Shown: positions 5,267 through 6,791 of the stretch, piece by piece
How the letters are laid out: each line of letters starts with the position of its first letter
How positions within the stretch are numbered: the stretch's first letter is position 1
The notes under the pieces: model-generated
Database searches by the model: none
Seen by the model: only the letters and a program-made list of their open reading frames with translations
What the model was told of the DNA's origin: nothing
Translations under genes and position numbers: made by a program
Origin: a virus
Taxonomy: Duplodnaviria; Heunggongvirae; Uroviricota; Caudoviricetes
IMG/VR virus record: IMGVR_UViG_2617271049_000012
Length of the DNA stretch: 42,306 nucleotides
Direction: 5' to 3' (one strand)

Positions 5267-5659
5267 ATGTCTGAACCCTTATCCGGTTCCGGCACGGCTG
5301 CGGCGCTCGGCGGGGCGACGGTATTCGGGCTGTTTACCGGAACGGATTTCGGGATTGTGTTTGGCGCATTTGCCGGGGCGCTGTTTGTGGCCACAATGCC
5401 GCAGGCACTATCTGCCTGGCGTGTGGCAGCGCATTTTCTGGTGTCGTTTATCGTTGGCGTGCTGGGTGCGCATGTGCTGTCAGCCTGGATTGCATCAAAA
5501 ACAGGTTATGACGGTACATCGGCGGATGCACTGTGTGCGGTGCTGGTGGCGGTGGTGTCGGTGAAGATTCTCTCGTTCATCCACCAGCAGGATATTGCAT
5601 CGCTGGTGTCCGGCCTGTTCTCCCGCCTGCGGGGTGGAGGAGGCGGCAATGTTAAGTAA
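5267..5659 (+). CDS. Phage holin (multi-TM membrane protein)
   Basis: ATG with AGGAGA RBS; Gly/Ala-rich hydrophobic helices; first gene of the lysis cassette upstream of the endolysin. Confidence 0.6.
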   Translation: MSEPLSGSGTAAALGGATVFGLFTGTDFGIVFGAFAGALFVATMPQALSAWRVAAHFLVSFIVGVLGAHVLSAWIASKTGYDGTSADALCAVLVAVVSVKILSFIHQQDIASLVSGLFSRLRGGGGGNVK

Positions 5660-5927
5660 CATTCCCGGATTGCTGAATGTGGCGTTATGCACGGTTATCG
5701 TGCTGACGCTCTTTTTTTATCGTCGTCGTGATTCCAGACATAAACCGCTGATGTCATGGCTGGCCTGGTTGCTGATGCTGCTGTATGCCTTTGCGCCCCT
5801 CAGCTATCTGTGTGGTCGCCCGTTAGCAACGGGCTGGCTGGAAGTGTTTTTTAACCTGCTGTTCTGCGTGCTGGTGGTTCGTGCTCGTGGGAACGTTTCA
5901 AAAATCTTTGTATTACGAAGGCGCTGA
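5649..5927 (+). CDS. Small membrane protein of the lysis cassette (holin/antiholin-like partner)
   Basis: ATG after GGAGGAGG RBS, overlaps the holin 3' end; two hydrophobic segments (LLNVALCTVIVLTLFFY, LMSWLAWLLMLLYAF). Confidence 0.5.
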   Translation: MLSNIPGLLNVALCTVIVLTLFFYRRRDSRHKPLMSWLAWLLMLLYAFAPLSYLCGRPLATGWLEVFFNLLFCVLVVRARGNVSKIFVLRRR

Positions 5928-5928
5928 G

Positions 5929-6474
5929 ATGAAGTCGAAAGATGAAATTTTTGATGCTGTTCTTGGCAAAGAGGGCGGCTACGTCAACCACCCTGATGAT
6001 AAAGGTGGTCCGACTAAATGGGGCATTACTGGAAAAGTTGCCCGTGCACACGGTTATCAGGGGGATATTCGTGACCTGACGCGTGGGCAGGCCCTCGAAA
6101 TTCTTGAAGCGGACTACTGGTACGGGCCACGTTTTCACAAGGTTGCGAGCCTGTCTCCGGAGATCGCTGCTGAATTGTGTGATACCGGCGTAAACATGGG
6201 GCCGTCAGTGGTATCCAGAATGCTTCAGCGCTGGCTTAATGTATTTAACCAGAAAGGAGAGTTGTATCCGGACATTGATGCAGATGGTTGTATCGGCCCA
6301 CGTACCATTAATGCGTTACGCGCCTATTTGTCAAAACGTGGCAGGGATGGTGAGTTGGTGATTCTGACAGCGCTAAACTGTGCGCAGGGAGATCGCTACC
6401 TTGAACTGGCAGAAAAACGTGAGGCTAATGAATCGTTCGTGTATGGCTGGATGAAAGAGCGCGTGGTGGTGTAG
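5929..6474 (+). CDS. Endolysin, glycoside hydrolase family 108 with C-terminal peptidoglycan-binding domain
   Basis: GH108 motif EGGYVNHPDDKGGPTKWGIT near the N-terminus; C-terminal PG-binding-like region; follows the holin genes. Confidence 0.85.
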   Translation: MKSKDEIFDAVLGKEGGYVNHPDDKGGPTKWGITGKVARAHGYQGDIRDLTRGQALEILEADYWYGPRFHKVASLSPEIAAELCDTGVNMGPSVVSRMLQRWLNVFNQKGELYPDIDADGCIGPRTINALRAYLSKRGRDGELVILTALNCAQGDRYLELAEKREANESFVYGWMKERVVV

Positions 6475-6791
6475 TTGGCATGAATGAGGCCAGTAAATCC
6501 AACCTGCGGTTAGCTTGTTATTAGACTTACCGAACAAGAAAAACGACTGGAGAAAGAGTTCGGTTTTTATACCAAACAAAGAGGAGAATATGAATCAGTG
6601 AGTACAGAGAAAAATCCTCGGCAGATCGTATAAATCTTCTTTTAAAGCCGTCCGTTATGAAAGGAATAGAAAAGAAAGTAACTGCACGTCTTTATGTGAC
6701 ACGGTCTGCTTTTGCTATTTTTCTTTTGGAGGTTGTTATTTGCGCATCAAGTGCAGATAGAGTTGCCCATCGAGATGGGCAACTTATGATA

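Follow-up and report, generated by a model that had tools for sequence, protein, structure and literature searches.

Phages without a spanin are few exceptions and are mostly virulent. Those catalogued for Escherichia, namely phiKT, ADB-2, Phax-I, CBA120 and ECML-4, we take to be virulent throughout. In the survey by Kongari et al. (2018, PMC6139136), about 13% of the phages of Gram-negative hosts (91/677 genomes) have no identifiable spanin. A preprint on phiKT, a phage described there as virulent, presents the disruptin gp28 as an alternative to a spanin (bioRxiv 10.1101/515445). The catalogue of Kongari et al. also lists a 60-aa lipoprotein as the o-spanin of phage phiP27, classified as a "separated spanin". 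We draw attention to this entry, the shortest spanin in that catalogue.

The window analyzed here (the whole stretch of DNA, 42.3 kb) carries a lysis cassette of the type found in phiP27 and in LT-II prophages, as judged from Pfam and PHROG assignments and from 82-93% protein identity to the genes of phiP27 and SerU-LTIIb. The two holin-family proteins are 90-93% identical to those of phiP27 (lysis module L28, L29, L30; AJ298298). The GH108 endolysin shares 82% protein identity with that of SerU-LTIIb (KU052038), which has the same three-gene order.

The lysis cassette and the interval before bor

The three lysis genes (Table 1) are intact and closely packed on one strand, with stops and starts that overlap or abut; the stop of hol1 is overlapped by the start of hol2. 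The endolysin, labeled "glycoside hydrolase family 108 protein" in RefSeq, scores above the Pfam gathering thresholds for both Glyco_hydro_108 and PG_binding_3 and contains GKEGGYVNHPDDKGGPTKWGIT; the EGGY motif is presumably catalytic in this family. The protein has no TM or SAR segment and no cationic or amphipathic tail. The first-pass annotation had described two membrane proteins and a GH108 endolysin as a lysis cassette, and Pfam and PHROG bear out its coordinates and content. The endolysin stop at 6474 was placed correctly (stop codon 6472-6474), whereas the implied start near 5930 has to be corrected to the ATG at 5929.

The hairpin directly upstream of the holin start looks like a terminator, which late transcription would need to read through. 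The same sequence (5227-5252) also precedes the homologous holin in Stx2e prophages, where it can be recognized via the KanR_FW primer sequence (PMC12571312). Deletion and complementation of this 130-aa hol1 homologue changed toxin release, which shows that the holin is functional in release (PMC12571312).

Table 1. Features of the lysis region and the adjoining genes, in window coordinates
Feature	Position	Strand	Description and basis
GC-rich hairpin and T-run	5227-5252	+	Directly upstream of holin start; terminator scan
hol1	5267-5659	+	130-aa holin; Pfam Phage_holin_8, E 4.7e-23; phrog_198 "holin", E 5.8e-42
hol2	5649-5927	+	92-aa holin-family membrane protein; Phage_holin_3_7, E 1.9e-21; phrog_217 "holin", E 7e-38
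Endolysin	5929-6474	+	Soluble, 181 aa; Glyco_hydro_108, E 3.2e-25; PG_binding_3, E 2e-25; phrog_315 "endolysin"
Spanin-less interval	6475-6791		Between endolysin and bor; position of spanin genes in relatives
Degenerate hairpin	6529-6568	+	ACCGAAC...GTTCGGT then TTTT; alignment with relatives and sequence
Putative vestigial RBS and start	6580-6601	+	AGAGGAG then ATG AAT CAG TGA; read from sequence
Membrane-protein gene, 5' fragment	6657-6749	+	About 31 codons; single-pass tm37/tm48 family, phrog_4493
Rz remnant	6750-6760	+	Last 11 nt of lambda-type Rz, AGTGCAGATAG, encoding ...QCR-stop
Rz-bor hairpin	6761-6784		11-bp stem; alignment and RNA fold; conserved with lambda-type phages
bor	6792-7085	-	Lambda_Bor, E 1.3e-30; lipobox LISGC
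DUF1398 (YbcV-like) gene	7310-7720	-	Pfam DUF1398, E 1.7e-44

Between the endolysin stop and bor on the minus strand lie 317 bp with a GC content of 38.7%, compared to 50-58% in the lysis genes. The AT-richness and length of this interval had been pointed out before, as had the lack of any ORF of 60 aa or more, and our analysis agrees on each: the longest ORFs measure 47, 28, and 25 aa. No gene is annotated in the interval in any of the RefSeq genomes (13/13). Taken alone, the lack of such an ORF in 317 bp would be statistically unremarkable, and it acquires meaning because of the comparison with relatives.

Carriers of the same block share the interval at 99.4-99.7% identity, whereas identity to the equivalent region in these relatives is only about 70% over 162 nt. 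The degenerate hairpin is homologous, by alignment, to the strong hairpin (CCCCGG...CCGGGG-TTTTT) that follows the endolysin in relatives. Positions 6580-6601 align with AAAGAGGAA, found ahead of tm37 in locus L004; at these columns, loci L055 and L090 are gapped or dissimilar. The site has the look of an inactivated upstream start belonging to a small membrane-protein gene, and we connect it with the upstream start in genes of the L055/L043 type by inference, not by alignment. The fragment that follows is 52% identical to tm37 over 29 aa (tblastn, E 0.001), in agreement with the alignments with relatives. It meets the Rz remnant at a junction between 6749 and 6750, and 6750 is also the position at which megablast homology to lambda and 933W starts. 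We recognized the remnant by alignment with the Rz-bor region of HK630 and by the C-terminal residues of Rz (...YINEQCR*) and the DNA encoding them; beyond these final 11 nt, nothing of Rz or Rz1 is left in the interval. The hairpin between Rz and bor is likely a bidirectional terminator. A search for structured RNA in 6475-6791 gave no Rfam match, and the fold z-score of -1.9 is accounted for by the two hairpins.

Judged from these sequence remnants, the interval is a recombination scar. A closer parent was sought in 5426 E. coli genomes by a search in distant mode, which returned only the 13 carriers, and the parental arrangement was not found among the relatives searched. With no parent found, and with identity to the nearest relatives at only about 70% in this interval, the exact deletion event can be inferred but not reconstructed.

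Search for spanins across the window

Neither the interval nor the 42.3 kb window contains an i-, o-, or u-spanin-like ORF. A lipobox scan of all ATG, GTG, and TTG starts on both strands of the whole window identified Bor as the only plausible lipoprotein; the five other loci are antisense ORFs in head, tail, and inserted-element genes. No u-spanin of the T1 gp11 type was found in the window: the Lambda_Bor match covers all of Bor, which lacks a C-terminal TM domain. Bor is an outer-membrane lipoprotein moron, not a lysis gene. Scanning the window for i-spanins (ORFs 60-220 aa long whose only TM segment is N-terminal and is followed by 45 or more soluble residues) returned only antisense shadows and Lom. 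The window was also searched by tblastn with lambda Rz, Rz1, the L010-type i-spanin, two other o-spanins, and the phiP27-type lipoprotein, with a best E value of about 0.04; the L006- and L019-type i-spanins were compared with related loci only. Lambda Rz and the L010-type i-spanin found no match in the window, where the 11-nt remnant is all that represents an Rz-type i-spanin. Rz1 and the two other o-spanins were likewise unmatched. The phiP27-type lipoprotein (best tblastn E 0.35) and its listed partner i-spanin, a 64-aa ORF, are absent from the window.

Two further locations were considered and rejected. One is a nested position inside or between the genes for holin and endolysin, known from Shewanella LambdaSo, but no frame of 5267-6474 contains a lipobox ORF. 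The other is a more distant place in the prophage, but lipobox and TM scans of the window revealed no spanin gene, and in the near-identical prophage of E. coli 1303 none turned up or is annotated in the early region. The 1303 prophage does contain one extra lipoprotein (lipobox) ORF, which adjoins hokD and is missing from the window. The statement in the first-pass annotation that no embedded Rz1-like lipoprotein ORF was recognized has withstood the lipobox search of both the window and the 1303 early region. Its suggestion that the window might encode a very small or unusual spanin has to be dropped, since the sole plausible lipobox ORF is Bor and the 47-aa ORF at 6657-6800 is a chimera without a Shine-Dalgarno sequence.

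This ORF arises at the junction, where the frame of the membrane-protein fragment continues through foreign sequence to 6800. Its C-terminal third is the translated 3' end of Rz plus the terminator hairpin, and it runs over the bor stop. In relatives, the Shine-Dalgarno position is occupied by GAGG. We regard it as very improbable that this or another tiny ORF of the interval is functional and disrupts the outer membrane through a small, membrane-active product. In favor of such a role, the 47-aa frame is uninterrupted, its product would carry a net charge of +3 and be hydrophobic in the middle, and conservation among carriers is 98-100%. However, this conservation equals that of the neighboring noncoding DNA, the hydrophobic stretch is 16 residues long and includes a Glu, and the protein is family-less, matching itself alone among 5.8 billion proteins and no PHROG. 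The net charges of the small ORFs in the interval are +3, +1, and -1, which is a crude test for disruptins, as these have no sequence model. No ribosome-binding site precedes a usable small ORF in the interval. Comparison of the small ORFs and of the small proteins of relatives with Pfam, NCBIfam, and PHROG gave only PHROGs of "unknown function".

What follows the endolysin in related prophages

Of 103 sampled loci, 53 have a phiP27-type lipoprotein, 24 have canonical spanins, 7 have LT-II toxin genes, and 20 have none of these; the last are mostly of the window type. Cassettes with overlapped spanins occur in prophages of Leclercia, Enterobacter, Kluyvera, Citrobacter, and Silvania (L010-L018). 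Their three gene families and gene order are those of the window (hol1-hol2-GH108), and their endolysins are 70-72% identical to that of the window. Unlike the window, they continue at the endolysin stop into an i-spanin of about 90 aa (phrog_1026) and an overlapping o-spanin of about 76 aa (phrog_1275). In a Salmonella-type cluster, an endolysin 87% identical to that of the window is accompanied by an embedded Rz/Rz1 pair (phrog_214, phrog_3001).

Most E. coli relatives, including phiP27, have the 60-aa lipoprotein that the window lacks. This protein (51/60 aa, lipobox LVGC, 30-aa mature part, phrog_7528) is encoded downstream of the endolysin, is closely linked to this holin pair, and in the sampled loci never occurs alongside a canonical spanin. 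The description "tiny or unusual spanin" does suit these closest relatives, given the listing of the lipoprotein as an o-spanin. The i-spanin listed for phiP27 is a TTG-start ORF (20348-20542) antisense to a conserved 90-aa gene (phrog_36812). This sense-strand gene is present in only 3/80 other lipoprotein loci (tblastn with a panel that excluded the 64-aa ORF itself). From its sequence context, the i-spanin half of the phiP27 pair looks spurious. We also rejected the 37-, 48-, and 44-aa membrane proteins of relatives as i-spanins, since an extramembrane domain is essentially missing from them.

Several of these observations fit the idea that an unrecognized non-spanin factor, encoded elsewhere in the prophage or residing in the cassette proteins themselves, disrupts the outer membrane and thus permits full lysis without a spanin. 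The closest relatives also have no credible periplasm-spanning pair, the phiP27 i-spanin being an antisense shadow; 28/80 lipoprotein loci have no gene homologous to tm37, tm48, or tm44; the block is found in different and apparently intact prophage backbones; and spanin alternatives are known, such as phiKT gp28 (bioRxiv 10.1101/515445). We nevertheless consider this explanation unlikely. Disruption of the outer membrane by another route, also raised in the first-pass annotation, gained no positive support. No candidate emerged: the endolysin lacks a TM segment and any cationic or amphipathic tail, and the cassette and its surroundings contain no short cationic ORF preceded by a ribosome-binding site. 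In other genera, homologues of hol1 and hol2 are found alongside canonical spanins, so there they do not take the place of spanins. Quite unlikely, in our judgment, is the related proposal that the E. coli phiP27-type module operates without any periplasm-spanning spanin. Relatives would then use a solitary 30-residue outer-membrane lipoprotein that is dispensable in the window-type block, and the holin pair and GH108 muramidase would lyse fully by an undescribed route. If the phiP27-type lipoprotein does act alone, it would represent a new kind of outer-membrane lysis factor.

Spread of the block and probable loss of the outer-membrane step

The bor gene of the window shares about 90% nucleotide identity with bor of lambda and 933W. 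The DUF1398 gene is present beside the cassette in every complete window-type locus; this gene, bor, and the spanin-less cassette travel as a single block. The block (endolysin, 317 bp, bor, DUF1398) was found in 13/5426 complete E. coli genomes and in 14 IMG/VR contigs, and it is 99.4-99.7% conserved across all of them. It occurs in at least two prophage backbones and integration sites, by potC in strain 1303 and by rspB in AREA_497.

Alternatively, the prophage may be domesticated or decaying, with holin and endolysin kept for a partial permeabilization that releases toxin, vesicles, or cargo and for which a spanin is unneeded. An insert of about 10.7 kb interrupts the portal gene of the window, so lysis behavior may be irrelevant to virion release. 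Several carriers have an IS3 between the DUF1398 gene and terS, and one has an IS-sized insertion within the interval. LT-II toxin genes directly follow the same cassette in some prophages, and the homologous holin promotes Stx2e release from strains reportedly without complete phages (PMC12571312). However, the portal insert carries an integrase and 19-bp direct repeats and may therefore excise, no toxin gene lies beside the window cassette, and the AREA_497 prophage has no pseudogene or IS flags over 40 kb. On balance we judge domestication or decay to be improbable.

Loss of the spanin, which had been raised as one possibility before, is supported by the 11-nt Rz remnant at 6750-6760 and by the canonical spanins that orthologous cassettes have at this position. 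Probably, a phiP27-type module recombined with the bor block of a lambda-type phage and lost all genes for the outer-membrane step, leaving lysis to holin and endolysin without a spanin. The module would have consisted of a Phage_holin_8 holin, a 3-TM holin-family partner, and the soluble GH108 muramidase. Two kinds of genes would have been removed: the lambda-type Rz/Rz1 pair, of which the final 11 nt are left, and the small lipoprotein of the closest relatives, with only about 31 codons of the preceding membrane-protein gene surviving.

By analogy to lambda biology, late transcription from a Q-dependent promoter would lead to production of holin and endolysin, the holin would permeabilize the inner membrane, the muramidase would destroy the murein, and the outer membrane would then fail by turgor and shear. 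We expect cells to behave like lambda Rz/Rz1 null mutants, with rounded cells and with release that would be delayed or incomplete when millimolar divalent cations stabilize the outer membrane or when shear is absent. Lysis by holin and endolysin, with release conditionally defective as in a spanin null, appears the most likely behavior. The spread of the block over different backbones speaks against this explanation to some extent, since it would be easier to understand if the absence costs little or if something compensates.

For the window, the practical consequence is a predicted conditional defect in lysis or release. A temperate lambdoid E. coli prophage with remnants of two successive spanin arrangements, in a block that recurs in different backbones, provides a convenient natural test case. 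Prophages of the window type are genetically tractable and bear on the true cost of spanin loss.

Compared to known systems, the window is a rare but understandable variant rather than a new lysis mechanism. Like lambda, HK630, and 933W, it has a late-operon cassette upstream of bor and the terminase genes, about 90% nucleotide identity in bor and the Rz-bor hairpin, and the final 11 nt of Rz. In contrast, the S and R proteins of lambda are unrelated to the holin and endolysin of the window, and the rest of Rz/Rz1 is missing. Like the window, phiP27 and SerU-LTIIb have no canonical Rz/Rz1 after the endolysin. However, phiP27 has a different endolysin (phrog_465, 125 aa) and the 60-aa lipoprotein, and in LT-II prophages the toxin genes sit directly after the cassette, whereas the window has neither and leads straight into the Rz remnant and bor. 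With the spanin-less phages of Kongari et al. and with phiKT, the window shares a holin and an endolysin without an identifiable i-/o-spanin pair or u-spanin; in contrast to phiKT, no gene for a disruptin-like cationic peptide stood out in it by the crude charge test. What sets the window apart from the cataloged spanin-less phages is that here the absence has a visible history, in the form of remnants of two replaced arrangements.

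A lysis cassette without a spanin gene

The window lies in a lambdoid E. coli prophage, and a query covering positions 5200-7100 matched the chromosome of E. coli 1303, a bovine mastitis strain, with 99.8% identity. The Q antiterminator is followed by a moron-like stretch and by a lysis cassette of three tightly packed genes on the plus strand; the terminase genes begin at 8452. The first-pass annotation had described two membrane proteins, a GH108 endolysin and 317 bp leading to bor on the opposite strand, and this layout is accurate. The cassette is of the holin-endolysin type known from phiP27 and the LT-II prophages.

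Features of the window at the lysis cassette, in the interval before bor and at the split portal gene
Feature	Position	Strand	Description
hol1	5267-5659	+	130 aa; Phage_holin_8, phrog_198
hol2	5649-5927	+	92 aa; Phage_holin_3_7, phrog_217
endolysin	5929-6474	+	soluble, 181 aa; Glyco_hydro_108 and PG_binding_3
endolysin stop codon	6472-6474	+
degenerate hairpin	6529-6568		counterpart of the strong CCCCGG...CCGGGG-TTTTT hairpin 3' of the endolysin in relatives
vestigial start	6580-6601		good ribosome-binding site, then ATG AAT CAG TGA
membrane-protein gene fragment	6657-6749		homologous to the first ~31 codons of the tm37 family
Rz remnant	6750-6760		AGTGCAGATAG, last 11 nt of lambda-type Rz, encoding ...Q C R stop
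Rz-bor hairpin	6761-6784
bor	6792-7085	-
DUF1398 gene	7310-7720	-
portal, N-terminal part	11116-11982		Phage_portal_2 model positions 2-242
portal, C-terminal part	22638-23492		Phage_portal_2 model positions 235-353

Just 3' of Q, Rfam matches above gathering thresholds mark a c4 a1b1 target (3387-3439), isrK (3400-3474) and a C4 antisense RNA (3497-3582). An ORF6N (antirepressor-type) gene follows (3633-4121); in strain 1303, RefSeq treats it as a truncated pseudogene. A gene for an AraC-family (HTH_18) regulator (4284-5087) lies between Q and the holin, at a moron position where related prophages carry stx or DNA methylase and tRNA genes. Ten N near the window end (42116-42125) represent a masked stretch or an assembly gap.

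To search for lipoproteins, we scanned all ATG/GTG/TTG ORFs of 20-300 aa on both strands of the whole window for an n-region with positive charge, a hydrophobic core free of charged residues and a lipobox Cys at residue 11-36. Bor was the only plausible match in the window; five other lipobox loci were antisense ORFs within head, tail or inserted-element genes and were rejected. When the window was scanned for i-spanin-like proteins, defined by a single N-terminal transmembrane segment plus a soluble tail of 45 residues or more, the only hits were Lom and antisense shadows. By tblastn against the window, lambda Rz and Rz1, the spanins of relatives and the phiP27-type lipoprotein gave nothing better than E ~0.04. 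These results agree with the initial reading that no recognisable spanin precedes bor. Furthermore, no lipobox ORF is nested within the holin or endolysin genes, a result that counts because the spanins of Shewanella LambdaSo were concealed as nested genes in such a position. The first 1173 bases of the window differ from the 1303 prophage, in the early region of which no spanin is annotated. [quoted passage not shown] A crude check for a disruptin-like cationic peptide gave net charges of +3, +1 and -1 for the small ORFs of the interval before bor, none of them with a ribosome-binding site ahead of a usable reading frame. Beside hokD, the 1303 prophage contains a 51-aa lipoprotein ORF annotated as hypothetical (MKKLVLVAGVMIATVMLGGC..., L107 25585-25740), which is absent from the window.

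Anatomy and spread of the interval

The 317 bp downstream of the endolysin stop (38.7% GC) are a scar with recognisable parts. At the vestigial start, the ribosome-binding segment can be aligned to the stretch AAAGAGGAA that lies 5' of the gene for tm37, a 37-aa membrane protein, in the related locus L004. We infer that this segment marks the upstream start, now disabled, of a small membrane-protein gene like that of L055/L043-type relatives. The gene fragment matches tm37 (MKGIEVETPASLDLTRAAAFAIRLVAVAVLIWAVRWW; phrog_4493) with 52% over 29 aa (E 0.001). The GAGG Shine-Dalgarno of the relatives is lost before this ORF, which runs on into foreign sequence as a chimera of 47 aa. For this chimera PHROG gave no match, and a comparison with 5.8 billion proteins found only the ORF itself; it is extremely improbable that the chimera is functional. 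Identity of the window to lambda, HK630 and 933W is ~90% from 6750 on. Since L004 and L005, which have bor or iss downstream, contain the same right-hand junction, this junction is an older module boundary. In one contig of the window type (L031 4595-7290), a ~2.7-kb IS-sized insertion lies inside the interval, with a target duplication of ~17 bp (interval positions 33-49).

Of 5426 complete E. coli genomes, 13 contain the interval, with 99.4-99.7% identity. Most of these carriers were sampled from cattle or on farms, and the same set yielded no intermediate form. The block of endolysin, interval, bor and DUF1398 gene adjoins differing holin alleles and terminase modules, and resides in distinct prophages at distinct chromosomal sites. 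In strain 1303 the block adjoins potC, within a prophage that contains ISEc20 and IS3 insertions. In AREA_497 the block adjoins rspB; integrase, Q and head module are different there, and no pseudogene or IS flag was found across 40 kb. Spread into apparently intact prophages is the one point in favor of an unrecognised non-spanin factor acting on the outer membrane, an explanation we consider unlikely.

What relatives carry after the endolysin

A search with the endolysin as query yielded 21 genome loci and 80 viral contigs, and we classified the 103 loci with sufficient downstream sequence. Nine loci (Leclercia, Enterobacter, Kluyvera, Citrobacter, Silvania, Dryocola and Escherichia sp.) keep the hol1-hol2-GH108 order and encode overlapped i-spanin (~90 aa) and o-spanin (~76 aa) genes beginning at the endolysin stop (phrog_1026 and phrog_1275, "Rz-like spanin"). 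Another 14 loci combine canonical spanins with other holins; they include a cluster of the Salmonella type whose endolysin shares 87% identity with that of the window and which has an embedded proline-rich Rz1 (phrog_214, phrog_3001). The largest class (53 loci, almost all E. coli) encodes a 60-aa lipoprotein, as a rule with one or two tiny genes for membrane proteins in front of it. In seven loci, LT-II enterotoxin genes lie immediately 3' of the endolysin, and 20 loci have none of these, 16 of which are of the window type. This survey indicates that the endolysin family and holin pair are normally accompanied by a gene for the outer-membrane step, and the region 3' of the endolysin is a hot spot for recombination and morons. 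In one LT-II prophage (L057 4635-7256), hol1-hol2-GH108 is followed by LT-II A and B, then by a second endolysin, which is of the phiP27 type, and by a lambda-like Rz of full length (58% identity). Its sister contigs L056 and L058 retain a 27-codon stub of the second endolysin and no Rz, so that the three look like snapshots of stepwise loss at the same hot spot.

The 60-aa lipoprotein (MKRKHWTHRMPRTAAKWALVAILVPFFLVGC|VSLDKARQLFDTASQVCEIVDGVRQCMQN; phrog_7528), which the window lacks, is hypothetical in all databases and unannotated in the GenBank record of phiP27 (L002 5583/5616-5771; also L004 4107-4289, L052 4543-4725 and the 80 loci L109-L188). In Kongari et al. 2018 it appears as the "separated" o-spanin of phiP27 (20706-20861), together with a partner i-spanin of 64 aa (20348-20542); according to these authors, no two-component spanin has a shorter combined periplasmic length than the 62 residues of this pair (PMC6139136). 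This i-spanin is an ORF that begins with TTG and lies antisense to a well-formed ORF of 90 aa with its own PHROG (phrog_36812). For the other lipoprotein loci the query panel contained the 90-aa sense-strand gene, not the 64-aa ORF; this gene was found in only 3 of the 80. The antisense position and the rarity of the 90-aa partner weaken the i-spanin call; as an antisense shadow of a conserved gene, it makes the published pair doubtful.

The lipoprotein may act alone. In the 80 viral contigs retrieved with it as query, hol1-hol2 and one of two unrelated endolysins always precede its gene, which never occurs together with a canonical spanin. Homologues of the small membrane proteins tm37, tm48 and tm44 were not detected in 28 of these 80. 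In L052 and L008 the lipoprotein start overlaps the endolysin stop. Neither the lipobox nor C48 varies, and at least 90% of the sequences have C57. The protein is thus an orphan lipoprotein tied to the lysis module, and a more interesting lead than the absence of a spanin from the window.

Probable spanin-null lysis

The portal gene of the window is split by a ~10.7-kb insert (about 11983-22653, within 11116-23492) with a 19-bp direct repeat, GTATTGCAATGTGTATTGC, at 12062-12080 and 22635-22653. Besides genes for a tyrosine integrase, a BRO-N protein, DUF4222, a RepA-like AAA_25 helicase and SSB, the insert carries second versions of three phage genes: a homologue of major capsid protein E, a decoration-protein-D-like gene and a Nu1-type small terminase. 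The insert resembles a phage satellite (PICI-like, with capsid-related genes) that integrated inside the portal gene of its helper, and the same integrase and RepA features occur among head genes in several other E. coli genomes. In its present state the prophage cannot make its own portal unless the insert excises. Such satellite and IS damage is compatible with a cassette domesticated for partial release instead of virion egress, which would also fit the published role of a homologous holin in Stx2e release (PMC12571312); we regard domestication as quite unlikely.

Holin, holin partner and muramidase of the window are intact, next to remnants of two earlier arrangements. The phenotypes of lambda Rz/Rz1 nulls are established, and are partly summarised in PMC6139136 and PMC10865782. 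By analogy with lambda, induction would permeabilise the inner membrane and degrade the murein, and without a spanin the outer membrane would be left to passive failure. The expected outcome would be spherical cells, with release delayed or blocked by a divalent-cation-stabilised outer membrane or by missing shear. Such spanin-null-like lysis is probably what this cassette produces; that this module family achieves complete lysis without a spanin is quite unlikely. As a tractable natural spanin-null, the cassette would be of mild specialist interest. Phages that lack spanins have been catalogued before (91 of 677 genomes; Kongari et al. 2018, PMC6139136); among them this case stands out because the module is that of a temperate lambdoid coliphage and its history of loss can still be read.
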